Source: Thermoanaerobaculia bacterium (GTDB taxonomy: Bacteria; Acidobacteriota; Thermoanaerobaculia; Multivoradales; UBA5704). Taken from it: a DNA stretch of 55,423 nt. The stretch is taken from contig DATDGZ010000306.1 in the NCBI GenBank assembly GCA_036521795.1, positions 1 to 55,423 on the forward strand, given 5' to 3'. Position numbers and translations under genes: made by a program. The notes beneath the pieces are model-generated. The model had not been told where the DNA came from. It saw only the letters and a program-made list of their open reading frames with translations, and searched no databases. Positions within the stretch are counted from its first letter, which is position 1, and each line of letters starts with the position of its first letter. Shown in pieces: positions 4,913 through 33,025 of the stretch.

Positions 4913-7900
4913 CTATTCCCGGGACGAGCTGTTGCCGCCGCTGCCCCCTGCCGCCGGCGGAGCGCCCGGCTTGACGAGGAGGGCCGGGTCGCCCAGCAGC
5001 TCGTAGATGCGGAGCACGTCGGGGTTCCCGCCCGCGGCGGCAAAGTCGCGCAGGGTGCGCTGGATGACGTCGCCCAGCCGCTGCGGGCTCGTCCCCTGGC
5101 CCCGTCCCAGCTCGAGGTAGAACTTCTGGCCGAGCAGCTTGGCGGCGTCCGAGACGGAAACGCCAGTCGGAGCCCACACGGCCGCCGCGGCGCCGCTCGG
5201 CTGCGCCACGAAGGCCGAGCCGAGCGACAGGAAGCCCGGGATCTCGAAGCGGTTGATGGTGCAGGTGAGGGCGGTCAGGATCGGCTGCCGGGGACCGTTG
5301 GTCAACCCGGCCGCATCGCTCGCCAGCAGCAGCCCGGAGGAGCTCAACTGGTTCAGCCCGCCGTGGCCGACGTAATTGACCAGGCCGACGCCGCTCTGCA
5401 AGTCCGCCAGCAGGGTCGGTCGCGCACCCGCGGGCGGTGGCGAGTCGAGGTCGATGCGCTCGGCCTGGTGGAAAGGCGGCAGGTCGCCCAGGATCGCGCT
5501 GCTGTCGTTGGCGAAGTTCTCGGAGCTGTCGGAGACGAGAACGGCGCGGCTGCTCCAGGCGGCCGGTGTGGCCGCCTCGTAGGCCTCGATCTTCTGCACC
5601 AGGTTGTGCAGGTCGGCGTTGGTGCCGACCGGCAACCGGCCGATCGCGGTGTCGGGGATGCCGGTCCCGAAGATGTCGGCGAAGGCGTTGTCGGACGCGA
5701 ACAGGCCGTACGCGGTCGCGATCATCAACGGTGGCACGAGGTTGCCGCCGAGCCCGAGATTGTTCTTGTAGTCGAGGGTCCCCGTGCCCGCCAGCACGAC
5801 ATAGCGGGGCGCCGGGTTCCAGTACGAGTGCGCATAGGCCAAGAAGTCATGGATCGCGTGCGGGTCCTGCAGACCGCCCGTCATCTCGTCGTAGATGTTC
5901 TGGACGTCGAGGACCATCGTCTTGAAGCCCTGGCTGGCGCGGTAGCTCGCCAGCTCCTGGGCGGCGGGCAGCAGCGCTTGCGGGGCGATGACCAGGACGT
6001 CGGCGCCGAGGGCAGGGGTGCGCAGCGGCATCGGCGACTCGGCCACGATCGAGTCCGGGAGCCGCCAGGAGGCGCCGCTGGCCGCGAAGTAAGGTGTCTG
6101 GGGAGATGCCGGCTGGAAGGAGACCTCGAAGCCGCCGCCGGGCGCGGAAGTCACCGCGGGTCCCGACAACCAGACGGGATGCGTCGGGTCGGTCAGATCG
6201 AAGACGTGGGTGCGCGGCGCCGTGAAGCCGCCGACGGTCACCGACGGGTTGCCGCCGCCCTGCACGAGCAGGGCGTTCATGCTCGTCTGGTAGAGCCGCT
6301 GGTAGGCGAGGTCGAAACTCTGGAGATACCAGTAGCTGTACGGGACCCCGGGGCCCAGCTCGGCGGTGACCTGGACGCTGTTGGCGCCCGGCCGCAGCAG
6401 GGCCCCGTTGAAGGGCAGATCGAGGGTCTGGGCCGTCGCGCCCGTCCACTGCGCGCCGCCGATCGGCGTGCCGTTGAGGGAGACCAGGGCCTGGTGCTCG
6501 TCGACGATCCCCGTGGCGCTCGCTCCCTGCACGTTCAACCGCAGGTGGGCGGTCTGGCCGATGTTGTTCGCGGCCTCGGCGCTGAGCGGGAAGGTCTGCG
6601 AGCCGAGCTGAGGATCGCCGGCGATGAGGCTCGCCCAGTACCAATAGTCCGAATCCGGGTTCGTCGCGAGGACCGTGGCGGCGAAGGTCTCCTGCTCGGC
6701 GTGCGCGCTGTAGGCGAAGCTCTCTCCGGGAAGCGGTGGAGCGGGAGAGAGGTACCGGGCGCTCATCCAGGTCCCGGGGGAGGCGCTCAAGTGATAGACG
6801 TTCTGGGCGGTGAAGATGCTCTGCGGCGCCTGGCCGTAGAAGATGATCCCGGACCATTCAGGCGCCCAGATGGTGGCCGGGAACCAGGCGATCTCCGCTC
6901 CGGCGTTGGTCAAGCGGAGCTGCTGCGAGGCGATGAGCCCCTGGACGACCGGCAGGCTGAGGCCGAGGCCCGAGGCGATCTGCGCCGCCGGGACGGCGTA
7001 GATGCCGGAGTCGTGCACCCGGAGCGCCAGGAGCTGCGCGGACCCGCCGCCCTGAACGGCGGCGGCGGCCAGCGCGCGGTCCTGCTCGGAGGCCAGCAGC
7101 GGCGGCATTGCCGGAGCCAAGGGCGCCTGCGGCGGATGAGGCACGCGGTCGAAGCCTTGCTCCGGCAGGGCCGGGCGATCGGGAGCGAAGTCCGCGGCCG
7201 CCACGTCGAGATCGAAGGGTCCCAGGACCAGCCGGTCGCTATGCCGGGCGGTCGTCACGTGCTCGACGATGAGGTAGCGCTCGGTCGCTCGCGAGCCCGT
7301 CGTGCGGTCGAGGACCCGGTAGTGACCGCCCTGCGTGGCGGTGAGCATGGCCGGCACGGGATTCTCGTTGACGAGGATGTAGCGCCCCTCGCGCGGCTCC
7401 CAGCGCAGCAGGTCGAAGGCGACCGTCCCCACCTCCGAATGGGAGTCCCACTCGACGACCACGCCGCCGCGGTCGCCCTGCCGCGCATGGACGTCCGCGA
7501 CCACGACGGGCGTGATGACGGACTGGGTCGCGGCGAGCTCGCAGAGCGGCCCGAAGGTCAGGGTGGCGCGCGCCTGGGTGGTGTTGCCAGTCTCGTCGAC
7601 CCAGACCCCCTTCGTGCCGTTGCCCGAGGCGACCGTGCCGACCACCGGGATCCTCTGGTTGGCCGAGGTGGGCGTCACCTTCACCTGGTAGGTGAGCAGC
7701 GCGGTGGTCGCCGCGGCGACGGTTCCCGGGTTCCAGGTGACGTTGCCGGTGCCGCCGACCGCGGGCTGTGCGGTGATCGTCCCCTGGGTCACGGCGGCGT
7801 TGCCGTTGTAAACGAGATTGGCGACCGGGCCAGGGACGTTGACAGTCACCAGGTTGGTGGCGGAGAAGGTGATGGCGGAGGCCGTCGGGTTGACCACCTG

Positions 7901-9271
7901 GACGGTGATCACCAGGGTGGTCGTCTGGTTCACCACCGGCGGGTTCGGGCCGCCCGCGCCGCCGTTGAACAAGTAGGTCACCTCCTGCTCCATGTAGGGC
8001 TTGACCGGCGTCCCCAGGGAATCGGTGGGGAGGTAGACGCGGAAAGTGTTGGCGGAGGGGGCGTTATCGGTGGGCGCGCAGCCTTGCCCGCCCGAGACCT
8101 CGGTGCAGGTGGCGACGTTGGAGTTGGCGATCTCGATGTTGGCGTAGTTGCCGTTGAAGCCGTTCTGGTTGGTGAAGTTGGTAATGGTCGCCGACATGGT
8201 CCAGATGCCGTAGTCGGTGGCGCTGTTGTCGGTGGTCCACCCGGTGACGGTATTCGTAGTCCACGCGTCGTTGATGGAGAGGGAGGTGTTGGCGATGTTC
8301 TTGGTGAACAGGGTCTGGGGGGCGGTGCTGGGGCTGGTGAAGGAGATCGAACCGACTGTCTGTGTGGCGCCGCCGTTGGTGTTGTTGAGGTCGTAGTCGA
8401 AGTCGTTCTCCAGGAAGGAGCAGCCGGACGTGATGTAGGGGTAGAGGGCGTAGGTCTTGGTGCCGGCGGTGCCGCTGGCGGTCGGGTTCTGGCCGAGCTG
8501 CGTATGCGCGGAGTAGTAGACCGGCAGTTCGATCGGCGCATGCGTGCCTTCCGGCTGACCAGAGCCTTCGTCGGCTGCGATGCCAAAGGCGTTGACGTCG
8601 TCCTCGGTGCCGCCAGTCTGCACGTCGGCGCCCTGATCGACGTCCAACTCCCAATGCCCGTTCGCGATCGGAGTGGTGGTGGTGTTGAACAGCGTCGACC
8701 AAGCGTTGAAGTTGCAGAAAGCGGGAGTGGTGCTGCCCCCGGTGCAGGTCTGCGTTGCCACCGTTGTACCTGCGGGATTGATCAACGTGTACTTGACGTT
8801 GCTGGTGAAGCCGCCAGTGTGCTTGGTGCGGTCGCGTTGGGCGGTCGCCTCATTGTTTCCCTGCGAGGCGAAGCCCGCTCCGAACCCAGCATCGAAGATC
8901 GAAACCCGCAGCCGCGCGAGACCGGCCGGCACTTCGATGAAGTAGCGGTAGAAGGTGGCATGTGCGACGCTGCCGAGGCCGTTCCCCTGCAGGCAGCCCG
9001 GCGCTGGCGGGGTGGGCGTGTCGCAGGTGGTATTGGTGGTGGTGGTGTTGGAGCTGATGAAATCGCCAAACTGAACCTGGCCGCCCGCGCCCTGCGGCAT
9101 GAAGAGCCCGGTGGCGGTCGTCGAGGTGGCGCCGCTGGGACCGGTGCCCCCGGCGTGCGCGAGGGGCGCGGCGGCGGGAGCCATGGCCAGGACCGTCAAG
9201 CACACGGCGATCCGGATGCTTGGCGCGCATCGGGTCCAGCTTGGATGCAAGCGGTGCGTCTGAAGACTCAT
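4913..9271 (-). CDS. Giant secreted peptidase C25 (gingipain-like cysteine peptidase) family protein
   Basis: 1452 aa. The N-terminal signal peptide is IRIAVCLTVLAMAPAAAPLAHA. Long Thr/Asn/Gly-rich beta-type regions follow. The C-terminal third looks like C25: VLVIAPQALLPAAQELASYRASQGFKTMVLDVQNIYDE, YVVLAGTGTLDYKN, NYVGHGG (His) and ILTALTCTINRF (Cys). Confidence 0.8.
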   Translation of the reverse strand: MSLQTHRLHPSWTRCAPSIRIAVCLTVLAMAPAAAPLAHAGGTGPSGATSTTATGLFMPQGAGGQVQFGDFISSNTTTTNTTCDTPTPPAPGCLQGNGLGSVAHATFYRYFIEVPAGLARLRVSIFDAGFGAGFASQGNNEATAQRDRTKHTGGFTSNVKYTLINPAGTTVATQTCTGGSTTPAFCNFNAWSTLFNTTTTPIANGHWELDVDQGADVQTGGTEDDVNAFGIAADEGSGQPEGTHAPIELPVYYSAHTQLGQNPTASGTAGTKTYALYPYITSGCSFLENDFDYDLNNTNGGATQTVGSISFTSPSTAPQTLFTKNIANTSLSINDAWTTNTVTGWTTDNSATDYGIWTMSATITNFTNQNGFNGNYANIEIANSNVATCTEVSGGQGCAPTDNAPSANTFRVYLPTDSLGTPVKPYMEQEVTYLFNGGAGGPNPPVVNQTTTLVITVQVVNPTASAITFSATNLVTVNVPGPVANLVYNGNAAVTQGTITAQPAVGGTGNVTWNPGTVAAATTALLTYQVKVTPTSANQRIPVVGTVASGNGTKGVWVDETGNTTQARATLTFGPLCELAATQSVITPVVVADVHARQGDRGGVVVEWDSHSEVGTVAFDLLRWEPREGRYILVNENPVPAMLTATQGGHYRVLDRTTGSRATERYLIVEHVTTARHSDRLVLGPFDLDVAAADFAPDRPALPEQGFDRVPHPPQAPLAPAMPPLLASEQDRALAAAAVQGGGSAQLLALRVHDSGIYAVPAAQIASGLGLSLPVVQGLIASQQLRLTNAGAEIAWFPATIWAPEWSGIIFYGQAPQSIFTAQNVYHLSASPGTWMSARYLSPAPPLPGESFAYSAHAEQETFAATVLATNPDSDYWYWASLIAGDPQLGSQTFPLSAEAANNIGQTAHLRLNVQGASATGIVDEHQALVSLNGTPIGGAQWTGATAQTLDLPFNGALLRPGANSVQVTAELGPGVPYSYWYLQSFDLAYQRLYQTSMNALLVQGGGNPSVTVGGFTAPRTHVFDLTDPTHPVWLSGPAVTSAPGGGFEVSFQPASPQTPYFAASGASWRLPDSIVAESPMPLRTPALGADVLVIAPQALLPAAQELASYRASQGFKTMVLDVQNIYDEMTGGLQDPHAIHDFLAYAHSYWNPAPRYVVLAGTGTLDYKNNLGLGGNLVPPLMIATAYGLFASDNAFADIFGTGIPDTAIGRLPVGTNADLHNLVQKIEAYEAATPAAWSSRAVLVSDSSENFANDSSAILGDLPPFHQAERIDLDSPPPAGARPTLLADLQSGVGLVNYVGHGGLNQLSSSGLLLASDAAGLTNGPRQPILTALTCTINRFEIPGFLSLGSAFVAQPSGAAAAVWAPTGVSVSDAAKLLGQKFYLELGRGQGTSPQRLGDVIQRTLRDFAAAGGNPDVLRIYELLGDPALLVKPGAPPAAGGSGGNSSSRE

Positions 9272-9627
9272 CGAAACCTCCCACCAGGACCTCTGCCTGC
9301 GATCAGCGTCTCGAACCGCGGAGCCGGCTGGGGCCCTGCGGCCCCCATTGCCCCACCCTCCCAGGGATCATGGGAATCGCGGGTAAGTGTAGCACAGTTC
9401 CTGTTGCAGCCGGCGGGGTGTCGCCGGTGGATATCTTATTCTAAAGTGCAGATACCACGATGCTTGGAGGCGGGCCGAGTGCACGGTGCCGCGCTGCCGG
9501 TGCCGGTGGCGTTGCCCTCGTTCGAGGTGATGAAGTCGCCGGATTGCACCTGTGGCGACGGCGCAGGAGGCGCGAGCGCAACCGAGGGAGCGCTCGCGCC
9601 GCGGCCGCCACGATCGTCAACCTTTCG

Positions 9628-11079
9628 TCACTGGGAGTTGCCCTCCCCGGGCTGCCGCTGCCACAAGAGAGCGCGGACCTGGTGCTGCAGGTCGTCGATC
9701 TGCGCCTGCTGCCGGTCGATGCGCTCCTGCTGGGAGGCGATCGTGCGATGCTGGCGCTGCACCTCGTTCAGCATCATCGCATCGATGAATTGCGAGCGCA
9801 CCGCGAGCGGCTTGCCGTCGCGGTCGAGCTGCACGAGCCCCGGATAGACCTTGGCCACCTCCTCTGCGATGAGCCCGTACTCGAGGAGGCGGGAGCCGTC
9901 GTCGTATGCGGGCTTGTAACGGAAGGTGACGGGGCGCAGTTGCATCAAGCCTTCGGTCGCGGTCCCCATGTCTTCGACGTCCTGCTTGAAGCGCAGCGAC
10001 GACGTCAAGGTCCCCAACTGATCATTGCTGTTCACGTACACCGGGATGCCGCTGGCGGTGGTCGCGCCGTTGATCCCGGAGATGAAGGCCGCGGTGTAGG
10101 GATGAGAACACGCGCCGACGCCACAGCCGATCCGGATCACGTTGTTGTCGCCGCTCACGCCGTAGTTGCCGATGAGGATGTCGTAGCTCTCATTGGCTGC
10201 GAGGTTCTGGCCGGCGGCCTCGCCGATCGCGATGTTGTTAAGGCCGCCGCCGAGCTGATTGGGTAGAGCGCTGGCCCCGATGGCGATGCCGTTGTCTTCA
10301 AGCGAGTACAACATGGCCCCGTCTCCCACCGCTGTATTGGAGCTCCCACCACCGACCGTCTGCAACGCTCCCGCGCCAAGACCGACGTTGCCATTGCCGG
10401 TGAAAGTGAGACTGCCGGCTCCGGGACCCAGGAATAGGTTTTCATGGCCGGTGCTCGGGCTGCCCGGGATCACGCTGCCGCTGCTGAAGTATCCGACGAC
10501 GTCCCCGACGAGATCGGTCGTCGAGTGCGAGCCCGCCGAGAGCACGCTGATGTCCGCGCCTTGCGTGTCCTGGCGCATGGCGAGGACGACCTGGTTGGCG
10601 AGAGTGACCCCGGTGAAGAAATCGATGAGCGAGGTGGCCGGCTCGCTGTGGTCCGTTGGCCACGCATTCAAGAAGCCGTTGCCGGCCGGGTTCACCACCG
10701 TCAGGTTGATCACCACGGCCTGCACCTGGGGCGGGCCCTGTATGGTGGCATCGGGTACGGCGCCAGCAGCCGCCGAGCGACGGATCGGCGCCTCGCCCTG
10801 CAAGACCGCAAACCCTGGCACCGCGCAGCCGCCGCTCGGCCCGCCCTGGTTGGTGAAATACGTTCCCGTGTTGTTGCCGACGATGTTGAAGGTCTGGACC
10901 ACGTTGGGCTGCAGCTTCCCGGCGATGGAGTTCCGGGTGTCGATGATGCGACACGGCACGACGCTGGTATAGATGAGATTGGGCACCATGACCTGTGCGC
11001 CGGCAGCGCCGACGCCCAGCAGCTGCAGGACGACCAACGGCAGGAATCGGAGGGAGAGACTCGAAGAGATGGATCGCAC
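9628..11079 (-). CDS. Secreted fibre protein with Gly-rich Hep_Hag-like repeats and a C-terminal peptidase S74 intramolecular chaperone domain (tail fiber domain-containing protein)
   Basis: A GTG start at 11079 is preceded by AAAGGAGG. The signal peptide is LRFLPLVVLQLLGVGAAGAQV. Repeats include NTAVGDGAM and NIAIGEAAG. The C-terminus SSLRFKQDVEDMG...LRPVTFRYK...EYGLIAEEVAKVYPGLV followed by a coiled coil matches the S74 auto-processing chaperone. Confidence 0.8.
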   Translation of the reverse strand: MRSISSSLSLRFLPLVVLQLLGVGAAGAQVMVPNLIYTSVVPCRIIDTRNSIAGKLQPNVVQTFNIVGNNTGTYFTNQGGPSGGCAVPGFAVLQGEAPIRRSAAAGAVPDATIQGPPQVQAVVINLTVVNPAGNGFLNAWPTDHSEPATSLIDFFTGVTLANQVVLAMRQDTQGADISVLSAGSHSTTDLVGDVVGYFSSGSVIPGSPSTGHENLFLGPGAGSLTFTGNGNVGLGAGALQTVGGGSSNTAVGDGAMLYSLEDNGIAIGASALPNQLGGGLNNIAIGEAAGQNLAANESYDILIGNYGVSGDNNVIRIGCGVGACSHPYTAAFISGINGATTASGIPVYVNSNDQLGTLTSSLRFKQDVEDMGTATEGLMQLRPVTFRYKPAYDDGSRLLEYGLIAEEVAKVYPGLVQLDRDGKPLAVRSQFIDAMMLNEVQRQHRTIASQQERIDRQQAQIDDLQHQVRALLWQRQPGEGNSQ

Positions 11080-21813: not shown

Positions 21814-22443
21814 ATGCTCTACCAGATCCTTTTCCTGGTTCTCGGTTGGATCCTGGGCTTGCTCAGCCCCGTTGTTGCCGACTTCTTTACGAAAAAGCGC
21901 CGCCTGGCGGAGATGCGGCGCGGCCTGCTCGTCGAGCTGGCTGAAGTGAGGTTCAGCCTAGCCAGCACGACGCTGGCGGTGGCAGGCACGATCGGCGCCT
22001 GGGACAGGCACTACCTCGAGTGGTTGAAGTCGGTCCTCGAAGCGTATCGCGGCGCGCGCGACGAGGACCGCAAGCAGCTGCAGGGCACGGTGGCCGGGCT
22101 GCTGAACCTGGACGACCAGCAGCTCGACGCGGCGGCCAGGTCGGCGGGATCGCCGGTCTCCCCCGCGCTCAGGAAATACCGTCTGCCTTACCTGGAATCG
22201 ACGATGGATCAAGTTGCCACCCTGGGTCCGGGTGCGCAACGGCAGCTGCTCGAGATCCAGGCCCAGGTCGGCGTGATCAACGACCTGCTGGACGACATCC
22301 GCTTCTGCCTCGGGAAGAGCTTCGATTCGCTCCCTCCCTCCACGCGCCAGGCCATCGACGCCAGTCTGCAGAACTCCTACCGCGCGGTCCTGCACTCCTC
22401 GCAACAGACGGCCGACCTGATCGGCAACCTGAAGCTCGCCTGA
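21814..22443 (+). CDS. Hypothetical membrane-anchored protein
   Basis: 209-aa ORF with one N-terminal TM helix (LYQILFLVLGWILGLLSPVVADFF) and a helical remainder. No motif recognised, no obvious SD, and somewhat lower G+C than the flanks. Confidence 0.5.
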   Translation: MLYQILFLVLGWILGLLSPVVADFFTKKRRLAEMRRGLLVELAEVRFSLASTTLAVAGTIGAWDRHYLEWLKSVLEAYRGARDEDRKQLQGTVAGLLNLDDQQLDAAARSAGSPVSPALRKYRLPYLESTMDQVATLGPGAQRQLLEIQAQVGVINDLLDDIRFCLGKSFDSLPPSTRQAIDASLQNSYRAVLHSSQQTADLIGNLKLA

Positions 22444-22506
22444 AGTCTGGGAGGGTCCGGGGCTGGAGGGGGCTTGCCAACTATATCCGTAGCGGTTATA
22501 GTCGGC

Positions 22507-22872
22507 ATGGAGATAGATGGCATGACTGAACCTGGCGCGCTCTCGCCCCTGCAGCCGGCGGCATTCCATATCTTGCTGGCGCTGGCGGATGGGGACCGGC
22601 ATGGGTACGCGGTCATCCAGGAGGTCGAGGCGCGGACCGGGGGCAAGGTGCGGCTGAGCGCGGGGACGCTCTACCGGTCGATCCAGCGGCTGCTCGAGCA
22701 GGGGCTGATCGCCGAGGTGAAGGAACGGCCGCTGCCGGAGCTGGACGACGAGCGCCGGCGGTATTACCGGATCACGCCTCTCGGGATCGCGACGGCGCGA
22801 GCGGAGGCGCGGCGGCTGGCGCAGCTGGTGGACATGGCACGCGCGCGCGGACTGGCGCCGGGGAGGGCTTGA
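22507..22872 (+). CDS. PadR family transcriptional regulator
   Basis: FHILLALADGDRHGYAVIQEVEARTGGKVRLSAGTLYRSIQRLLEQGLI...RRYYRITPLG is the PadR winged helix. The start could be 22507 or 22522. Confidence 0.88.
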   Translation: MEIDGMTEPGALSPLQPAAFHILLALADGDRHGYAVIQEVEARTGGKVRLSAGTLYRSIQRLLEQGLIAEVKERPLPELDDERRRYYRITPLGIATARAEARRLAQLVDMARARGLAPGRA

Positions 22873-25463
22873 TGATGCGCCTCTACCGGGCCCTGTTGAC
22901 GGTCTATCCGGCTTCGTTTCGCCGCCAGTATGGGGCCGAGATGCTCGGCATCTTCGCGCGGCGCCGGCGCGAGGCGGCGGGGCCGCTGGCGGTCGTGGGA
23001 TTGTGGGCGGCGACGCTCGGCGAGGTGCTCGGCAACGCCGCCGCGGTGCACTGGGACCTCCTGCGGCAGGACCTGCGCTACACCGCGCGCGGGGTGCGGC
23101 GGGCGCCCGGGTTCGCGGCCACCGTGCTGCTGGTGGTGGCGCTCGGGATCGGCGCCAACACGGCGGCGTTCACGGTCACCGACTTCGTCCTGGTCCGGCC
23201 GCTGCCGTTCCAGGAGCCCGAGCGGTTGGTGAAGCTCTGGGAGAGCCGCCCCGGCTATGAGTGGATGGAGCCGTCTCCGGCCAATTACCGCGACTGGAAG
23301 CGGATGAGCTCTGCCTTCGAGAGCATGGGCGCCTTCACCGGCACCTCGGTGAACCTCGTCGGCCATGGGGACCCGGTGCGGCTGGCTGGCGCGGAGGTCA
23401 CCGCGGAGGTGCTGCCGCTGCTCGGGGTGCGGCCGCTTCTCGGCCGCTTCTTCACCGCCGCCGAGGACCGCCCCGGCAGTGGCGGGACGGTGCTCCTGAG
23501 CTATCGCCTGTGGCAGGACGAGCTGGGCGGCGACGCCCACGCGCTCGGGCGCCGGGTGACCCTGGACGGCGCGCCCTTCGTGGTCATCGGCGTCATGCCG
23601 CGGGATTTCCATTTCCCCGACACGCGGGCGCGGTTCTGGATGCCGGCGCGGCTTCGCGACCAGGACTTCCTCGACCGCAACGACAACTGGCTCGAGGTGG
23701 TGGCGAAGCGCAAGCGCGGCATCTCGCTCGCCGCGGCAAGGGCGGAGATGACGGTGGTCGCGGCCCGCCTCGAGCGCCAGTATCCGAAGGAGGACGCGCG
23801 CACCGGCGCCCTGGTCATCGGCCTGCGCGAGGAGCTCTCGCAGCAGTCGCGCCTGCTGCTGCTGGCGCTCTCCGGCGCGGCGCTCTGCGTGCTGCTGATC
23901 GCCTGCGCGAACCTCGCGGGCCTGCTGCTGGCACGGGCGCTGGCCCGCCGGCAGGAGCTCGAAGTGCGGGCCGCCCTCGGCGCGGGCCGCGAGCGGCTGC
24001 TGCGGCAGCTGCTGACCGAGAGCCTGGTGCTCGCGATGCTGGGCGGTGCGCTCGGGATCCTGGTGGCGGGCGCGGCGGTGCCGCTGCTGGCACGGCTTTC
24101 CCCGGCGTCGCTGCCGATCGCCCAGGCGCCGGCGATCGACCTGCGCGTGCTGCTCTTCGCCGTCCTGCTCACCGCTGCGACCGGCATCGGCTTCGGCCTG
24201 GTGCCCGCGCTGCGCGCCTGCCGCGAGGCCGGCTTCGCGGCCTTGCGGGAAGGGGGTGCGCGCGGCGGCGGCGGGCGCCGGGAGAGGCTGCGCGCCGCGC
24301 TGGTCATGGTCGAGGTGACCGCGTCGGTGGTGCTGCTGATCTCGTCGGGGTTGCTCATCCGGGCGCTGTGGCGGTTGCAGGCGACCGACCCCGGTTTCCG
24401 CGCCCAGGGCGTGCTGACACTGCGCACCGCGCTGCCGACGCCGAAGTACGCGTCGACGGCCCGCCGGGCGGCGTTCTACCAGCACGTGCTCACCGGTGCC
24501 CGCGCGCTGCCGGGCGTCCAGGGCGCGGCCTACGCCAGCTTCTTGCCGATGGTGCATTCCGGCGGCATCTTCCCGGTCGCGCTCGAGGGGCAGCCGTTGC
24601 AGCGCGAGGCGGCGACGGCGGCGAGCCTGCGCTTCGTGACTCCCGGCTACTTCGCGGCGATGGGAATTCCCCTGCGCCGGGGACGGGAGGTGAACGAGGC
24701 GGACGCCCGCGAGCGTCCTGCCGTGGCCGTGGTCAGCGATTCCTTCGTGCGCCGCTACTGGCCGGACCAGGACCCGCTGGGCCGCCACTTCCAATTCGCC
24801 TTCGGCGAGCGCACGGTGGTCGGCGTGGTCGGCGACGTGCGGGTCCGCGGACTGGACCGCAGCAGCGAGCCGCAGGTCTACCTGCCCTACCTGCAGGTGC
24901 CGGACGGCGCGCTGGCGTATTACGCGCCGAGGGACCTGGTGGTGCGCTCGGCGGCGAGCGTCGAGGCCCTGCTGCCGCCCCTGCGCCAGATCATCCGCGA
25001 AGCGGACCCGGAGCAACCGGTCTCGGAGGTGCGGACGCTGGCCGCCATCGTCGCCGAGCAGACCGCATCGCGCTCGCTGCAGCTCAGGGTGCTGGGAGCG
25101 TTCGCCGCCATCGCCTTCCTGCTCGCCGGCATCGGCATCCACGGGCTGCTCGCCTGCGCGGTGTCGCAGCGGGCGCGCGAGATCGGGGTGCGGCGAGCCC
25201 TGGGCGCCCAATCGGCCGACATCCTGACCATGGTCCTGCGGAGCGGGGTGCTGACCGCGGCGATAGGCCTGGTCCCCGGCTTGGCGCTCGCCTACGGTGC
25301 GGGAAGGGCCATGGAAGCGCTCCTCGCCGGGGTCGAGCCCGGCGACGCGCCGACGTTCGCGGCCGCGGCGGCCCTGTGCCTGCTGATGACGGTGTCGGGC
25401 AGCATCGTACCCGCGCTGCGCGCCCTGCGCGTGGACCCGATGACGGTGGTGCGGACGGAGTAG
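22869..25463 (+). CDS. Duplicated FtsX/MacB-type ABC permease (ADOP family)
   Basis: ATGA overlap with padR. N-terminus LYRALLTVYPASFRRQYGAEM...LRQDLRYTARGVRRAPGFAATVLLVVALGIGANTAAF, with two MacB_PCD plus FtsX halves in 864 aa. PadR followed by this permease is a recurring pairing. Confidence 0.88.
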   Translation: MMMRLYRALLTVYPASFRRQYGAEMLGIFARRRREAAGPLAVVGLWAATLGEVLGNAAAVHWDLLRQDLRYTARGVRRAPGFAATVLLVVALGIGANTAAFTVTDFVLVRPLPFQEPERLVKLWESRPGYEWMEPSPANYRDWKRMSSAFESMGAFTGTSVNLVGHGDPVRLAGAEVTAEVLPLLGVRPLLGRFFTAAEDRPGSGGTVLLSYRLWQDELGGDAHALGRRVTLDGAPFVVIGVMPRDFHFPDTRARFWMPARLRDQDFLDRNDNWLEVVAKRKRGISLAAARAEMTVVAARLERQYPKEDARTGALVIGLREELSQQSRLLLLALSGAALCVLLIACANLAGLLLARALARRQELEVRAALGAGRERLLRQLLTESLVLAMLGGALGILVAGAAVPLLARLSPASLPIAQAPAIDLRVLLFAVLLTAATGIGFGLVPALRACREAGFAALREGGARGGGGRRERLRAALVMVEVTASVVLLISSGLLIRALWRLQATDPGFRAQGVLTLRTALPTPKYASTARRAAFYQHVLTGARALPGVQGAAYASFLPMVHSGGIFPVALEGQPLQREAATAASLRFVTPGYFAAMGIPLRRGREVNEADARERPAVAVVSDSFVRRYWPDQDPLGRHFQFAFGERTVVGVVGDVRVRGLDRSSEPQVYLPYLQVPDGALAYYAPRDLVVRSAASVEALLPPLRQIIREADPEQPVSEVRTLAAIVAEQTASRSLQLRVLGAFAAIAFLLAGIGIHGLLACAVSQRAREIGVRRALGAQSADILTMVLRSGVLTAAIGLVPGLALAYGAGRAMEALLAGVEPGDAPTFAAAAALCLLMTVSGSIVPALRALRVDPMTVVRTE

Positions 25464-25711
25464 GGGCGGAGGGGACATGGCGGACCTGATCGGGTAGGCT
25501 GAGCTGGGCTGAAGGCCGAACAGGCTAGTGCGGGAGCGCTGCCAGCGCCAGTCAATCGAGCTCGGTCCAGTGGAGCCACGTAGCGATACCGGGCTGACTC
25601 TTGCCCGAGACGAAAGCGAGGAAATGCATGGGAACTGGAGGCGGGGGTGTTGCCCGCATTCGGCCTCAAGACGGCCCTGAGGGCCAATAACAGTTGAGAA
25701 TCCCTCTCGGC

Positions 25712-25739
25712 TTGACAGTGCCCGAGAAGGGAGTAGCAT
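25712..25739 (+). promoter_or_regulatory. Sigma70-like promoter candidate (TTGACA-N16-TAGCAT) for the island genes
   Basis: cTTGACAgtgcccgagaagggagTAGCATgc, read directly about 25 nt upstream of the AGGTGGA SD and the ATG at 25765. Confidence 0.4.
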
Positions 25740-25764
25740 GCTAGCAGATTAGGTGGAACCGTCT

Positions 25765-26580
25765 ATGATGGTGGCGGGGTCAAGTCCATATGGGAAATGT
25801 CGACTTGAGCCCGTGCCTGAGGCCGGAGTGAGCCGGCTGCGTGGAAGCACTAGTCATTTCCATGTTTACTGCGAGGATGCTCTCGGGACAGCCGGTGTGC
25901 GTCTCGCCGACGGCATCTTGGCTGCATGTGAGGCTGACTACGAGAGGTTCCGAAACTGGTTTGGCGTCACTCCTGCAGGCTTGCCGTTCGAGGTCTATCT
26001 CGTAGGTGGCGACTTTGGCGCCAAGCATGCTACCTGCGCCGCGACTAAGATGACCTGCGCCGCCTTCGACGGCCACGATGTCAACTTGGTGAGGATGCTC
26101 GTGGCTGCTGAAGAGGTTGAGGTGTTTTCGGCAGCGCTGAATGGCGGCTGGAATTGTGCGACGAGTTCCGGAGAGGGACTCTCGCGAGTTCTCGCGGCGG
26201 AGACCGTTCCGAACGGCATCTCCGGATTCGCCACTGCCGCGTGCTGGCTAGACACTCCAGACCGCCCAGACTTCGTCTCCTGCAACTACCCAAACGACGC
26301 TCACCTCGTCTCGATCGGATGCTCGACTCTTTTTCTCAACTACCTTAGGTACCAGCTAGGGTTCAGCTGGACGGAGATCATTCGGAAGGGTGGCTCAACG
26401 TTGGCGTCGACCTATCACCGCTTGGCTAATCGGATGGACGCGTTCGGTCCCTTCGCAACGCTGCTGGAATCATTTTTCCCACCCGGCGCACGGGCGCTGT
26501 TGCTTAGCGACAACCCGTTCCCGCTCCCGCTTGACGCTAACGCTAAACGCCGCGCACCGATGACACTGGCAAGTGTGTGA
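25765..26580 (+). CDS. Hypothetical Cys-rich protein (ORFan A of the low-G+C island)
   Basis: ATG at 25765 is preceded by AGGTGGA at 7-nt spacing; the track's alternative GTG start is 25753. No signal peptide and no domain I can name. Conserved-looking blocks are HFHVYCEDALG, GGDFGAKHATCAA, AAEEVEVFSAA, SSGEGLSRVLA and GCSTLFLNYLRYQLG. Confidence 0.6.
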   Translation: MMVAGSSPYGKCRLEPVPEAGVSRLRGSTSHFHVYCEDALGTAGVRLADGILAACEADYERFRNWFGVTPAGLPFEVYLVGGDFGAKHATCAATKMTCAAFDGHDVNLVRMLVAAEEVEVFSAALNGGWNCATSSGEGLSRVLAAETVPNGISGFATAACWLDTPDRPDFVSCNYPNDAHLVSIGCSTLFLNYLRYQLGFSWTEIIRKGGSTLASTYHRLANRMDAFGPFATLLESFFPPGARALLLSDNPFPLPLDANAKRRAPMTLASV

Positions 26581-26646
26581 GTCCTATTCTAAAGTGATAG
26601 AGATGGAGTCGCTAGAGAACCTTAGCTGTAAGAAAGGAGCGACAAC

Positions 26647-27576
26647 ATGAGCATTGCAACCTTTACGCTGCGCATTCATTTCACGGGGATATGCGCGCTG
26701 GTACCGAATGATCCCGATCCCGAGTTGGCAACTAGCATGTACGTTGTACTTCCCGGCTGCGAGAATGTATCAGGCCGTGTCGCCGCGGATGGAAGTGTCC
26801 TGCGCACGCACAGGCCGATCGTGCGCTTCCGTGCCTGCAACCTGCTTGGCGTTGAAGGCGTTCCCGGCCTGACCGTGACGTGGCCGATCCACGGCAAGCG
26901 CTTGACGATCGCAGCAAGAGGATCAAGTTCTGCCGTCAATGACTTCCATATCGTGACGCAAGGCGAGACGAGCATCTACAACTTGGTCCATCTGGATCGA
27001 GTCGCACCTGACTTCGGTATTCTCGACTCCATTCACATTGCCTCCGCTCCATCCGAACTCGTGCAGGCCCAGGTGTTTGTCCAGCAAGGCAGGTTATGTG
27101 CGGGGTTGCCGCTTGCGCCCTGGCGGTTTCCAGCGACGCTTGTATCGGAGTCGCTGAGGTTACCGCTCGCTCAGAAAGCCCTGTTGGAGCTAACCGGCCT
27201 ACATGCCGCCGACCTGGTGGCCGAGTCGTTGCGCGGCGAAGCGAATGAGGTGCTGCGTCTTGCGCCTGGCCTTGGGGACACGGAGGTAGATGGCGAACCA
27301 GTCGTTGAGGTGACCATCGCCAACTTCTGCGGTGAAGATAGTGGCAAGAGCCTCGCTCCTCTTCCTGACGAGGACTTCAAATGGTACTTCCAGCTGGTGC
27401 CAAGTTCTCTCCAGGAACCACTGAGGACTCGTCTTGACGGGCTGCCGTTGCCGATTCCTTATCCCATCCTGGAAGACAGTCATTTCATTAACTATGGCAA
27501 TTGCTACCCCGCGGTTATCCACACGATAAAGCGGCTCGTAGACGCGGTCATGGGGAAGGGTGCGCAGGGGGACTAA
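26647..27576 (+). CDS. Hypothetical protein (ORFan B of the low-G+C island)
   Basis: Strong SD: AGAAAGGAGcgacaacATG. 309 aa, no TM helix or signal peptide, no recognisable motif. The N-terminus is FTLRIHFTGICALVPNDP. Confidence 0.6.
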   Translation: MSIATFTLRIHFTGICALVPNDPDPELATSMYVVLPGCENVSGRVAADGSVLRTHRPIVRFRACNLLGVEGVPGLTVTWPIHGKRLTIAARGSSSAVNDFHIVTQGETSIYNLVHLDRVAPDFGILDSIHIASAPSELVQAQVFVQQGRLCAGLPLAPWRFPATLVSESLRLPLAQKALLELTGLHAADLVAESLRGEANEVLRLAPGLGDTEVDGEPVVEVTIANFCGEDSGKSLAPLPDEDFKWYFQLVPSSLQEPLRTRLDGLPLPIPYPILEDSHFINYGNCYPAVIHTIKRLVDAVMGKGAQGD

Positions 27577-27639
27577 AGGTCGACCATCATCGCAGTCCAC
27601 ATTGATCGTCAATATTGGGGGACGCACGGGCCGGCGCCG

Positions 27640-28040
27640 TCATCGTCGGTCTGGGCGACGAGTTCTCGCAGCCGCCGACATCCAGACGATGATCCCGTCG
27701 GCCTTGACCTTCGACCCGTCCACCACCTGCGGGCCCAGCCGCACCACCCGGCCTCCCGAGCGATCCGCACCACCTGCACGAACAGCTCCCCAAACGCCTT
27801 CAGGTGCTCCTGGCGGAACTCGCAGATCGTTCGATGGGCCGGAAAGTTGCCTGCTGCCAACACCCGGTAGGCCACGTCCTCCTCCAGCTTGCGGGCGATC
27901 CGCCGCGACGAGAACGTTCCCGTCGCGTGGGCGTAGAGCAGCACCTTGACCATCATCGCCGGATCGAACGCCTGGTTGCGCCGACCGTCCCCTTCGTAGG
28001 GCGCATAGAAGGCACTCCGATCCAGGGTATCGACGGCTGC
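27640..28040 (-). pseudogene. Decayed IS5/IS1182-type (DUF772 N-domain) transposase remnant
   Basis: The minus strand reads VDTLDRSAFYAPYEGDGRRNQAFDPAMMVKVLLYAHATGTFSSRRIARKLEEDVAYRVLAAGNFPAHRTICEFRQEHLKAFGELFVQVVRIAREAG. After a frameshift it continues LVRLGPQVVDGSKVKADG and then loses similarity. There is no start codon for the N-terminus and the catalytic DDE part is absent. Confidence 0.75.
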
Positions 28041-28093
28041 GGTTATGATTCTTGCCGCCGCACTGCTTCACCGCCGGTGCGTGGGAGGTACCG

Positions 28094-29086
28094 ATGACCA
28101 CCGCCGCAGCTTCTCGTCTCTCGGTGTCGCTGGCGGACGTGCGCGCGGCGCACGAGCGGATCGCGGGGCGGGTCCATCGGACGCCGGTCCTCGCGTCGCG
28201 CCAGCTGGACGCGCTCACGGGCTGCCGGATGTTCTTCAAGTGCGAGCTGTTCCAGCGGGGGGGCTCGTTCAAGGCGCGGGGAGCGTTCTCGCGCCTGACG
28301 CTGCTGGCTCCCGCGGAGCGCGCGGGCGGGGTGGTGGCGTTCTCGTCCGGCAACCATGCGCAGGCGGTGGCGCTGGCGGCGCGCGAGCTGGGGATGCGGG
28401 CGACGATCGTGATGCCGACCGACGCGCCGGCGATCAAGGTCGCGGCGACCCGCGGCTACGGGGCGCGCGTGGTGCCGTACGACCGGGCCTCCGGGGACCG
28501 CGAGGAGATGGCGCGGCGGATCGTGGCCGAGGAAGGGGCGGTGCTGGTGCCGCCGTTCGACGACGACGCGGTGATCGCCGGACAGGGGACGCTGGCGCTC
28601 GAGCTGCTCGACGAGGTGCCCGACCTGGACGCGGTGGTGGCTCCCTGCGGCGGCGGCGGGCTGCTGTCCGGCATCGCGGTCGCGGGGCGAGGGGTGCGGC
28701 CAGGGCTGCGGGTCTTCGGGGTGGAGCCCGAGGCGGGCGACGACATGAAGCGCTCGCTCGCCGCCGGCGAGCCGGTCAGCGTGCCGCTGCCGGCGACGAT
28801 CGCCGACGCGCTGATGACGATGCGGCCGGCGGCGCGCACGCTGGCGATCGTGCGGGCGCTGGCCGAGGACGTCCTGACCGTCTCCGACCTCGAGCTGCGC
28901 CGGGCGATGGCGCTGCTCGCCTCGCGGCTGAAGCTGATCGTCGAGCCCGGCGGGGCGGCCGGGTTCGCGGCGCTCCTGCATGGCAAGGTCCCAGGGGTCG
29001 CCTGGCGGCGGATCGGGGTCGTGCTCTCAGGAGGCAACGTCGACCTCGAGCGATTCGGGAGCCTGGTCGCGGGCCTCCCGTCCTGA
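28094..29086 (+). CDS. PLP-dependent threonine/serine dehydratase-like enzyme (threonine ammonia-lyase / serine racemase family)
   Basis: SD GGGAGG lies before the ATG at 28094. FFKCELFQRGGSFKARGA carries the PLP lysine, with SSGNHAQAVA and APCGGGGLLSG further on. Confidence 0.88.
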   Translation: MTTAAASRLSVSLADVRAAHERIAGRVHRTPVLASRQLDALTGCRMFFKCELFQRGGSFKARGAFSRLTLLAPAERAGGVVAFSSGNHAQAVALAARELGMRATIVMPTDAPAIKVAATRGYGARVVPYDRASGDREEMARRIVAEEGAVLVPPFDDDAVIAGQGTLALELLDEVPDLDAVVAPCGGGGLLSGIAVAGRGVRPGLRVFGVEPEAGDDMKRSLAAGEPVSVPLPATIADALMTMRPAARTLAIVRALAEDVLTVSDLELRRAMALLASRLKLIVEPGGAAGFAALLHGKVPGVAWRRIGVVLSGGNVDLERFGSLVAGLPS

Positions 29087-31519: not shown

Positions 31520-33025
31520 CTACGCATAGGGCAGCAGTGGTTGCGGGTCCTCGCGCCGGGCCGCGCGGCGATGCCTCGCCCCGGCCGGCGGATGCGGATC
31601 GAGGTGGAGCGGGCCGAGGAGCTCGGCGCGTGTCACGGCGGCGATGCCTTGCTGTCGCGGCGCGCGCCAGGTGCCGGAGAGGGCGCGAAAGGCCACGGTC
31701 CTCGCGCTTTGGCCGGCGAGCGATGCCTCCTGCGGCTCGGCGACGAGCAGACTGTCGTCGGGCACGCCGCTCACCACGGCCGGGGAGTGCGTGTTGACGA
31801 TGACCTGCCGCAAGGGGTTGCCGGCTCCCACCGGCTCGTCGACGTCGGTCGGAATCGCTTGCAGCAGGCGCAGCAGGGCCGGGATGCGCGCCGGATGGAT
31901 GCCGTTCTCAGGCTCCTCGAGGCAGACCAGGCCGGGCGCCCGCGGGTCGACGGCGAGGACCGCGAGCGCCAGCAAGCGCAGCATGCCGTCGGAGAGGGAG
32001 CGCGCCCCATGGGCGACGCCGTCGCGGCCGGTGACCATCAGCGTCAGCAGCTCTCGCTTGGCGTCGGCCTCGACCCGGATCGCGCCGACTTCCGAGCCGA
32101 GCTCGCCCAGCTCGCCCAGCTCGCCGATTTCCGCGAGGCGGGCGGCGAGCGCTGCGTAGATCCGCTCCGGTGCCGCCGCCGCGGTGCCGCCGGCTCCCGC
32201 GGCGTCGCTCGGCCGGCCGCCGGTGGCAAGACGATGCAGCGTCGCGGCGAGGTGCGCGCCGTCGCTGCCCAGGCTGGTGGGCGCCCGGAAGTCGTCAGGC
32301 TCGCGCAAGCTCGACGGCTCGAGCCGCAACAGCTGCCAGGACTGCATCTCGCGCCGGGCCGCCAGCGCCGTCGGGCTCTCGGCGGCGTTGGCGGCCGAGA
32401 GGACGGTGCGCGGCAGGCTCTGAGCCGGGACGCTCCAATGACGGGCGCCGCCGCCGTCCTGGTGGAGAGTGACGACGCGGTTGCCGCCCTCTCGCTCGGT
32501 GGAGATGAAGTAAGGCGCCCGGCGCGAGCCGGTGACGGCGGATCGCCGCCAGGTGGCGGCGCGGTGCGGGAATGGCAGGTGCCTGAAGGCCTCGCCGAGG
32601 TTGATGTGACCCAGCTCCTCCTTGACGATCTCGAGCGGCCCGAGATGCCTGGACGCCGCGTCCTGCCGCCTGGCCAGGACGAGGTGGTAGTGGAGGAAGG
32701 TGATGCTCGGTCGCGCTGTCTGCCCGAGATCGTCGACCGCTTCGCCGGACACGATCATCTCGGCCGCGAAGGACATCTCCGCGACGGAGTCGGCGCCGGC
32801 GCGCAAGAAGAGACCGTCGACATCGGTTGCCCGCCGGTCCCTGGCCCGGACCGACTCGGCGGCATCGGCGAGCGGGCGGTCGGCGAGGGCGCCGAGGAAG
32901 CCCACGGCATCGAAGAGGTTGGACTTGCCGGCGCCGTTGACGCCGGCGACGCAGGTGAAGGGACCGAAGTGGAGATCCAGGTCGAGGAGATTCTTGAAGC
33001 CGGAGACTCTCAGGCGCGTGAGCAT
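31520..33025 (-). CDS. Orphan ABC/OLD-type (AAA_15/AAA_21-like) ATPase
   Basis: MLTRLRVSGFKNLLDLDLHFGPFTCVAGVNGAGKSNLFDAVGFL holds Walker A. SLSDGMLRLLALAVL is signature-like. PGLVCLEEPENGIHP is Walker B plus D-loop, and VIVNTHSP is the H-loop. No nuclease domain was recognised in the roughly 90-aa tail. Confidence 0.8.
   Translation of the reverse strand: MLTRLRVSGFKNLLDLDLHFGPFTCVAGVNGAGKSNLFDAVGFLGALADRPLADAAESVRARDRRATDVDGLFLRAGADSVAEMSFAAEMIVSGEAVDDLGQTARPSITFLHYHLVLARRQDAASRHLGPLEIVKEELGHINLGEAFRHLPFPHRAATWRRSAVTGSRRAPYFISTEREGGNRVVTLHQDGGGARHWSVPAQSLPRTVLSAANAAESPTALAARREMQSWQLLRLEPSSLREPDDFRAPTSLGSDGAHLAATLHRLATGGRPSDAAGAGGTAAAAPERIYAALAARLAEIGELGELGELGSEVGAIRVEADAKRELLTLMVTGRDGVAHGARSLSDGMLRLLALAVLAVDPRAPGLVCLEEPENGIHPARIPALLRLLQAIPTDVDEPVGAGNPLRQVIVNTHSPAVVSGVPDDSLLVAEPQEASLAGQSARTVAFRALSGTWRAPRQQGIAAVTRAELLGPLHLDPHPPAGARHRRAARREDPQPLLPYA

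Follow-up and report, generated by a model that had tools for sequence, protein, structure and literature searches.

A low-G+C island of a Thermoanaerobaculia bacterium probably retains the outer genes of a TPR-CHAT protease cassette

CHAT proteases and the island under study

In bacterial immunity, CHAT and caspase-like proteases are coming to be seen as executioners; Craspase, SAVED-CHAT/PCaspase, and the activation of gasdermins are examples. This report concerns two neighboring genes, here called A and B, in a low-G+C island (positions 25464-28040) of a contig from a Thermoanaerobaculia bacterium of the Acidobacteriota (DATDGZ010000306.1, assembly GCA_036521795.1), and their relation to a cassette that contains a TPR-CHAT protease. 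All positions refer to the whole stretch of 55,423 nucleotides that was analyzed, which is called the window.

In the type III-E Craspase, the TPR-CHAT protein Csx29 cleaves Csx30 (PMC10028731), and SAVED-CHAT activates PCaspase, which also has an inhibitor (10.1101/2023.06.23.546230). The island had been described in an initial annotation, made from the sequence alone, as a horizontally acquired accessory module of two ORFans, possibly a conflict system or a toxin/immunity pair.

A related cassette with a TPR-CHAT gene between A and B

The island is probably a horizontally acquired patch in a variable intergenic hotspot, one that preserves the two ends, A and B, of an A - TPR-CHAT - B cassette but has lost its central 3.2-kb protease gene, with a decayed IS1182 element adjoining what is left. 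A related cassette was found in the metagenomic run SRR12009740. There, contig L122 carries an A homolog (P0005, 58% identity) whose stop codon overlaps, as ATGA, the start codon of a further gene cut short by the contig end, and the 286 amino acids encoded by this gene up to that point align with the N-termini of TPR-CHAT proteins from loci L083, L084, and L085. L122 ends in the 19 nt with which L001, a second contig of that run, begins; L001 carries the rest of the CHAT gene and, 14 nt on, the closest homolog of B (P0122, 56% identity). Joining the two contigs gives an in-frame open reading frame (ORF) of 1070 codons and one stop, and a locus with the order glnS - A - TPR-CHAT - B.

In a neighbor-joining tree of 43 A-family proteins, 99 of 100 bootstraps place the A gene of the window as the sister of P0005, and the relationship of the two loci extends to the level of DNA. 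Positions 25927-26530 of the window align with 1102-1711 of the merged contig (within A, 67% identity), positions 26633-27515 align with 5059-5940 (starting 13 nt before B, 64% identity), and the 3.3 kb between these two blocks of the merged contig is absent from the window. In the window, A and B are separated by a spacer of 66 bp with 44% G+C (26581..26646), at the place where the related cassette has its 3.2-kb TPR-CHAT gene. When this spacer was compared with the end of the CHAT gene, only the ribosome-binding site and approximately the last 10 nt were weakly alignable, with a score of 21 versus 14.7 +/- 2.0 for shuffled sequences. No CHAT homolog was found by tblastn (E<=1e-3) anywhere in the 55-kb window.

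These comparisons support a connection between A and B, though one other than a two-gene module: in their sole other co-occurrence a gene for a 1070-aa TPR-CHAT protein stands between them. The change in the window is best read as loss of the CHAT gene rather than gain in the related lineage, because the next-closest B homolog (P0123, 47% identity), which likewise follows a CHAT gene, and all deeper informative relatives of B are CHAT-linked.

TPR-CHAT proteases as the conserved partner of B

The conserved partner of B is a TPR-CHAT protease, not A. A survey of 29 B loci, comprising 27 metagenomic loci and those of the two closest homologs, found a same-strand gene for a TPR-CHAT protein of 1030-1106 aa in 20 loci, directly upstream of B in 17 of these, with a gap of approximately 2-18 nt, and one gene downstream in the other three. 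The remaining nine loci were too short on the relevant side, so that adjacency to TPR-CHAT holds in 20 of 20 informative B loci outside the window. The partner combines a CHAT domain (PF12770, 6e-56) with TPR repeats and carries the motifs HYAGHA and SAC, which correspond to the His and Cys of the catalytic dyad. No adjacent A homolog was present in any of the 29 B loci and, conversely, 80 A-family loci showed neither a conserved neighbor nor a B homolog; A-B as a conserved neighbor pair was rejected on this absence of adjacency. The close A homologs P0003, P0004, P0002, P0009, and P0016 likewise have no CHAT or B gene nearby.

Two layouts recur among the CHAT-B cassettes, and both include a further protein. 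One is TPR-CHAT - B - C14 caspase-like protein, in which the C14 protein has only a weak, generic caspase match in PADLOC. The other is B - 389/409-aa protein - TPR-CHAT, in which the middle gene (L083:1711-2862, L084:8846-10075, L085:8856-10079, L086:4235-5404, and L101:761-1924) encodes a protein of 389-409 aa with conserved CC pairs and an invariant HELGHVxxGxHP segment, an HExxHxxxxxH motif with the histidine spacing of metzincins. This protein has no match in Pfam, NCBIfam, or PADLOC, and its motif suggests that it may represent an unrecognized metallopeptidase family. Comparison of the A and B profiles with the 409-aa cassette protein by hhalign found no relation, and it was this comparison that revealed the HExxH motif of the latter.

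The CHAT-B cassettes are compositionally foreign in many hosts, not only in the window. At five loci (L084, L086, L087, L089, and L093), the G+C content at third codon positions (GC3) of CHAT-B was 0.61-0.78, versus 0.80-0.98 for other genes of the host.

Family and predicted fold of B

Gene B (26647..27576, plus strand) encodes a protein of 309 aa that belongs to a beta-rich family with a TPR-CHAT gene as its obligate neighbor. A word-indexed search with B retrieved two homologs only, and the yield of a third such search, made with a B profile, was close to nil; when 1.84 billion representatives were searched with a profile, 214 representatives of 50%-identity clusters were obtained at E<=1e-3, 110 of them at E<=1e-10. 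Most of these homologs are approximately 300 aa long and align end to end. Neither B nor A, whether searched as a single sequence or as a profile, matched anything in Pfam, NCBIfam, PHROGs, PADLOC, or the sequences of the PDB; the homologs of B had no Pfam match either, and a plasmid and phage search for B returned no matches.

The AlphaFold 2 model of B (predicted local distance difference test score, pLDDT, 91.8; predicted template-modeling score, pTM, 0.90) is of high confidence and consists mainly of beta structure, along with two C-terminal helices and a proline-rich tail. Foldseek found no fold match for this model in the PDB or BFVD, with a best probability of 0.08 and a template-modeling (TM) score of 0.11. 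The B protein of the window is full length, keeps all invariants of the family (G14, H55, G148, D241, D243, and C286), and deviates at none of 20 highly conserved columns. The most conserved part of the family is the C-terminal segment PDEDFKWY...GLPLPxPYP...NC.P. A gasdermin or other pore-former was considered for B and rejected, with no gasdermin match in PADLOC or Pfam and no gasdermin among the Foldseek matches in the PDB.

Family and predicted fold of A

Gene A (25765..26580, plus strand) encodes a protein of 271 aa with a predicted gluzincin fold of M1-like type, in which AExxE stands in place of HExxH. The public gene call (P0001) starts at an internal GTG and gives 227 aa; the longer product, from ATG 25765, is supported by the family alignment, the ribosome-binding site, and the gene call in a second assembly. 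Homologs of A at 45-60% identity form 310 clusters (90% identity), and 154 GTDB species genomes contain relatives, all of them annotated as hypothetical, which come from Dormibacterota, Chloroflexota, Acidobacteriota, Actinomycetota, Pseudomonadota, Bacteroidota, and Planctomycetota, as well as from one Deinococcus plasmid. Many members carry C-terminal DUF346, tectonin, FG-GAP, or DUF5648 repeats.

The AlphaFold 2 model of A has a pLDDT of 89.9. Foldseek matched it to the catalytic domains of M1 peptidases (ERAP1, APN, LTA4H, and tricorn F3) and to the M30 peptidase lugdulysin, with a probability of 1.0, an E-value of 2.8e-4, and query TM-scores of 0.45-0.52, and the model can be assigned with confidence to a thermolysin-like or M1-like catalytic fold of the MA-clan gluzincins. 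The family invariants are G85-A86-x-H88..C91 on a strand, A115-E116-x-x-E119 on the following helix, and G136-E137-G-L-S-R on the next, where E137 lies in helix 134-147, 17 residues past E119. In the model, the order and spacing of these elements appear to resemble the GxMEN / HExxH / E series of M1 peptidases, with a putative equivalence of residues. The zinc-binding HExxH motif itself is not present in A; AExxE is found throughout the family, with both zinc-ligand histidines replaced, by Ala and Glu. Catalysis by A is uncertain because it lacks both of these histidines.

A is like the MA-clan gluzincins (M1 ERAP1, APN, and LTA4H; M30 lugdulysin) in predicted fold and, putatively, in the order of conserved elements, but it differs from them in lacking the zinc-ligand histidines and any peptidase match in Pfam or NCBIfam. 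M1 enzymes, in turn, have no equivalent of its invariant His88/Cys91 pair or of its four conserved cysteines. Alignment by hhalign of the A profile with an LTA4H catalytic fragment gave an uninformative probability of 0.3. The A protein of the window deviates at 6 of 75 highly conserved columns, against a median of 4.

A-like domains were also found on megaplasmids of Bacillus, Bradyrhizobium, and Ralstonia, in proteins all annotated as hypothetical. On a Ralstonia solanacearum megaplasmid (L119, 4731-8135) the domain forms the N-terminus of a 1134-aa protein, and on a plasmid of Bradyrhizobium sp. 187 (L120, 5016-6644) it forms the N-terminus of a 542-aa protein with insertion sequence (IS) elements around it. 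Both replicons are plant-associated megaplasmids, and a link of A-like proteins to secreted effectors is possible. At another locus (L126:8001-10871), the A homolog P0016 adjoins a fragmented FtsX/MacB_PCD permease of ADOP-like type on the opposite strand, an arrangement that echoes the window and may be a coincidence, because such permeases are very abundant in Acidobacteriota.

The island, its borders, and its insertion site

In 300-nt windows, G+C content falls to 0.54-0.62 across 25550-27650, versus 0.72-0.77 in both flanks, and in a 2.1-kb sliding window the island is the minimum of the 55 kb, at 0.585, where the rest has a mean of 0.715, a standard deviation of 0.025, and a minimum of 0.646. 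The foreign block runs from 25464 to 28033 (G+C 0.54-0.67) and comprises A, B, and the IS remnant; its three coding parts have a GC3 of 0.65-0.67 (A 0.665, B 0.658, transposase fragment 0.65), against 0.86-0.95 in neighboring genes.

The variable segment is larger than the foreign block. Proteins flanking the island are at least 90% identical to those of Thermoanaerobaculia metagenome-assembled genomes, and positions 14191-37455 of the window have collinear counterparts, at 90-94.5% nucleotide identity, in two contigs (L111 and L112). In these closest syntenic relatives, 106 bp stand in place of a segment of approximately 5.6 kb between a gene for a 209-aa protein and the threonine dehydratase gene (22439..28033), which holds a PadR-like regulator gene, an ADOP permease gene, A, B, and the IS remnant; homology starts again at approximately 28034. 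The same intergenic site is occupied in two other contigs (L114 and L115) by a gene for a 75-aa Unstab_antitox protein. The site, which corresponds to window positions 22439-22443 and 28034-28093, is a variable hotspot whose contents turn over, as it is empty in L111 and L112, holds Unstab_antitox in L114 and L115, and holds 5.6 kb in the window. In a further contig (L113), synteny upstream of the site is broken altogether.

Only the A-B-IS part of the 5.6-kb segment is compositionally foreign; the PadR-like and ADOP genes show no such deviation. The PadR-like gene (22507..22873, plus strand) matches TIGR03433 (padR_acidobact) at 1.6e-13, under the curated cut-off, and its stop overlaps the start of the gene for the ADOP-type duplicated permease (22869..25463, plus strand; MacB_PCD 9.8e-34, FtsX 1.5e-23), which has a GC3 of 0.94 and native-like codon usage. 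A palindrome, ACTATAT..N..TTATAGT, at 22480-22502, just 5' of the PadR-like gene, looks like a candidate PadR autoregulatory operator. Since both genes are themselves absent from L111 and L112, the left neighbor of the island is not a core gene and the variable segment exceeds 25464-28040. The right neighbor is the PALP threonine dehydratase gene.

At the right edge of the island lies the remnant of an IS1182-family transposase gene (27650..28033, minus strand), which covers approximately residues 35-160 of about 488. It matches DUF772 (4.5e-11) and NF033551 (2e-19, model positions 57-134 of 488), the latter with 69.7 bits against a cut-off of 270. On the minus strand, one frame runs from approximately 28033 to approximately 27725, where the single frameshift lies, and is followed by a shifted frame encoding 'RLGPQVVDGSKVKADG' up to a stop near 27650. 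About a quarter of the gene is left, cut at both ends, and no inverted repeats or target duplication were found at the remnant. It thus resembles the IS1182 family in its recognizable transposase N-terminal region and differs in lacking a full-length DDE transposase, terminal inverted repeats, and a target duplication, which rules out an intact IS1182 element and leaves a remnant only. No direct repeats flank the island, no tRNA gene is present in the window, and Rfam and tRNA scans of the island gave no match, the decayed IS1182 fragment being the only candidate signature of mobility. Composition and codon usage support horizontal acquisition of the island, as do the fact that syntenic relatives lack it, the IS remnant, and a patchy distribution of both families among phyla. 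A separate assembly, from run ERR4661006, contains the same 6.2-kb arrangement with 100% identity; this run may share the sample, and the assembly may not be independent.

Upstream of A, a promoter-like TTGACA-N16-TAGCAT (25712..25739, plus strand; 10 of 12 matches) is the sole sigma-70-like match in 25300-28200, where 0.5 would be expected by chance. Putative ribosome-binding sites precede both genes, AGGTGGA before ATG 25765 and AAAGGAG before ATG 26647, and a scan of the island found no terminator-like site, none between A and B included.

Most of the descriptive claims of the initial annotation agree with these results. The low G+C of the island was borne out by windowed G+C and codon usage (GC3 0.66 in A and B); the promoter-like site and the two strong Shine-Dalgarno sequences are present as described, as are both ORFs with all the peptide blocks quoted from them; A and B indeed have no match in the family libraries searched; the right edge is a frameshifted, truncated transposase gene; and the neighbors are, as named, a PadR-like regulator, an ADOP-type permease, and a threonine dehydratase. 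Insertion between core genes holds on the threonine dehydratase side and fails on the PadR/ADOP side. The term ORFans was mistaken, given the clusters and genomes in which A has relatives and the 214 representatives found for B. Structure prediction followed by Foldseek, which the annotation had proposed for both proteins, yielded a gluzincin-like fold for A and no PDB or BFVD match for B.

Two further features of the window lie outside the island. A second, milder low-G+C stretch occupies 8001-11000 (0.64-0.68 in 1-kb bins). On the minus strand at 31520-33025, adjoining a DPP4 gene, is a gene for an ATPase of approximately 500 aa of the SMC_N/AAA_21/AAA_15/DUF2813 type; this domain set is typical of OLD/ABC-ATPase defense proteins, and the gene is conserved in L111-L115 and native to the lineage.

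Possible mechanism and alternative explanations

By analogy with described protease systems, the full cassette may be a protease-cascade conflict or defense module. The TPR-CHAT protein would sense a signal through its repeats and start proteolysis, serving as both sensor and initiator protease, and B, its invariant partner, would either be set free by cleavage as a substrate or effector or have a regulatory role. One could speculate that the conserved C-terminal tail of B docks on the TPR array. A would be an accessory, second-tier peptidase-like component, a role that the metzincin-motif protein or the C14 protein may take in sister cassettes. Most likely, the cassette in the window no longer works as a system, because its initiator protease is missing.

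Not all that the initial annotation proposed about the nature of the module fits this picture. Horizontal acquisition and the belonging together of A and B stood, and the two-gene composition did not, as the cassette has three genes. Co-occurrence of A and B as neighbors, which it had suggested surveying, was found in 0 of 80 A loci and 0 of 29 B loci, the latter counted as adjacent A, and enrichment of defense genes, a second such suggestion, was equally absent around the CHAT-B cassettes. A and B had no PADLOC match. A toxin/immunity pair found no support, and a type II toxin-antitoxin pair was ruled out by the protein sizes of 271 and 309 aa, the lack of any match to a toxin-antitoxin family, and a pairing that is not conserved. 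A conflict system remains a reasonable guess for the cassette.

Several observations weigh against loss of a CHAT gene from such a cassette, or against the role proposed for it. The order A - TPR-CHAT - B was seen in a single instance, which depends on a 19-nt overlap between two short contigs, and the correlation of relative synonymous codon usage between A and B, 0.54, is no higher than that of either gene with native genes. CHAT-B cassettes are flanked by heterogeneous housekeeping genes, with no enrichment of defense genes, and PADLOC v2.0 found nothing significant for the TPR-CHAT proteins, the B homologs, or the 409-aa protein. The A and B ORFs show no decay and the promoter-like site and both ribosome-binding sites are kept, which fits continued use over a dead remnant; a TPR-CHAT gene could also lie elsewhere in the genome, outside the window. 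The same intactness, with every family-invariant residue kept, would suit an A-B pair that works as a two-gene system of its own, a sensor-less or re-wired minimal cassette in which zincin-fold A now fills the place of the protease or acts on B as its only partner. A single promoter-like site 5' of A, no terminator between the genes, and a separate ribosome-binding site for B are compatible with such a system, its order of a peptidase-like gene followed by B mirrors that of CHAT followed by B, and extra peptidases have repeatedly been recruited by B-family cassettes. This explanation is nevertheless unlikely: A is without both zinc-binding histidines of HExxH, the window is the sole case of B without CHAT among 21 informative loci, none of the 80 other A loci has a B homolog, and the adjoining IS debris indicates local decay.

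Two further explanations concern the history of the locus. An ancestral A-B arrangement, into the middle of which the SRR12009740 lineage received the TPR-CHAT gene, is highly improbable, even though only two lineages can be compared, polarity is not observed directly, and the A-B spacer retains little recognizable CHAT sequence; P0123 and all more distant informative B loci are CHAT-linked, with gaps of approximately 2-18 nt, so that the CHAT-B association is older than that with A, and A-family genes are otherwise solitary. Least probable of all is that A and B are unrelated cargo brought side by side by a chance rearrangement, or that a chimeric assembly made them adjacent. Co-occurrence of the two families is lacking in the 80 A loci and 29 B loci, their similarity in codon usage is unremarkable, and there is IS debris in the region, yet the nearest relatives of both genes stand in one cassette of one metagenome, A and B share their GC3, and the 6.2-kb arrangement is identical in the ERR4661006 assembly, possibly from the same sample. 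Loss of the central protease gene from a horizontally acquired A - TPR-CHAT - B cassette remains the preferred account.

A broader proposal, possible but doubtful, is that TPR-CHAT and B with an interchangeable second peptidase form an undescribed family of protease-cascade conflict or defense systems, with a B fold unseen in solved structures, and that the window holds an 'initiator-less' derivative in which A and B are under selection, alone or with a protease encoded elsewhere. Irrespective of this, two families outside Pfam and NCBIfam are now tied to a CHAT protease, A with a predicted zincin fold and AExxE and B with a beta-rich model that has no structural relative. Their linkage yields testable questions, namely whether TPR-CHAT cleaves or binds B and A, and whether A is a metal-dependent peptidase despite having no HExxH. 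For annotation purposes, the island would be a truncated cassette copy in a recombination hotspot and not a self-contained two-gene system.

Comparison with known systems

A literature search found no description of an A - TPR-CHAT - B or CHAT-B cassette. The cassette differs from Craspase and SAVED-CHAT/PCaspase in several respects: no CRISPR, CBASS, SAVED, or cyclic-nucleotide component was seen in CHAT-B neighborhoods, no similarity of B to Csx30, PCaspase, or folds in the PDB could be detected, and the CHAT proteins of the cassette are not recognized by PADLOC, while the window has no CHAT gene. The likeness lies in the full cassette, which has a TPR-CHAT protein with His/Cys dyad motifs and a small partner in tight translational coupling with it; in many cases a second peptidase is present as well. 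The parallel would be an initiator protease acting on a partner or on a second protease, as in Craspase (PMC10028731) and in the SAVED-CHAT/PCaspase system (10.1101/2023.06.23.546230).

Operons of bacterial gasdermins and their proteases offer a second comparison. B differs from gasdermins in being mostly beta, in having a conserved rather than variable C-terminal tail, and in the absence of any gasdermin match, but it resembles them as a protein of approximately 300 aa that is encoded beside caspase-like or CHAT proteases of interchangeable types, and this likeness makes a cleavage-activated effector a natural model for B. As a type that is undescribed and absent from Pfam, NCBIfam, and PADLOC, the cassette is best filed among the modules centered on CHAT and caspase-like proteases.

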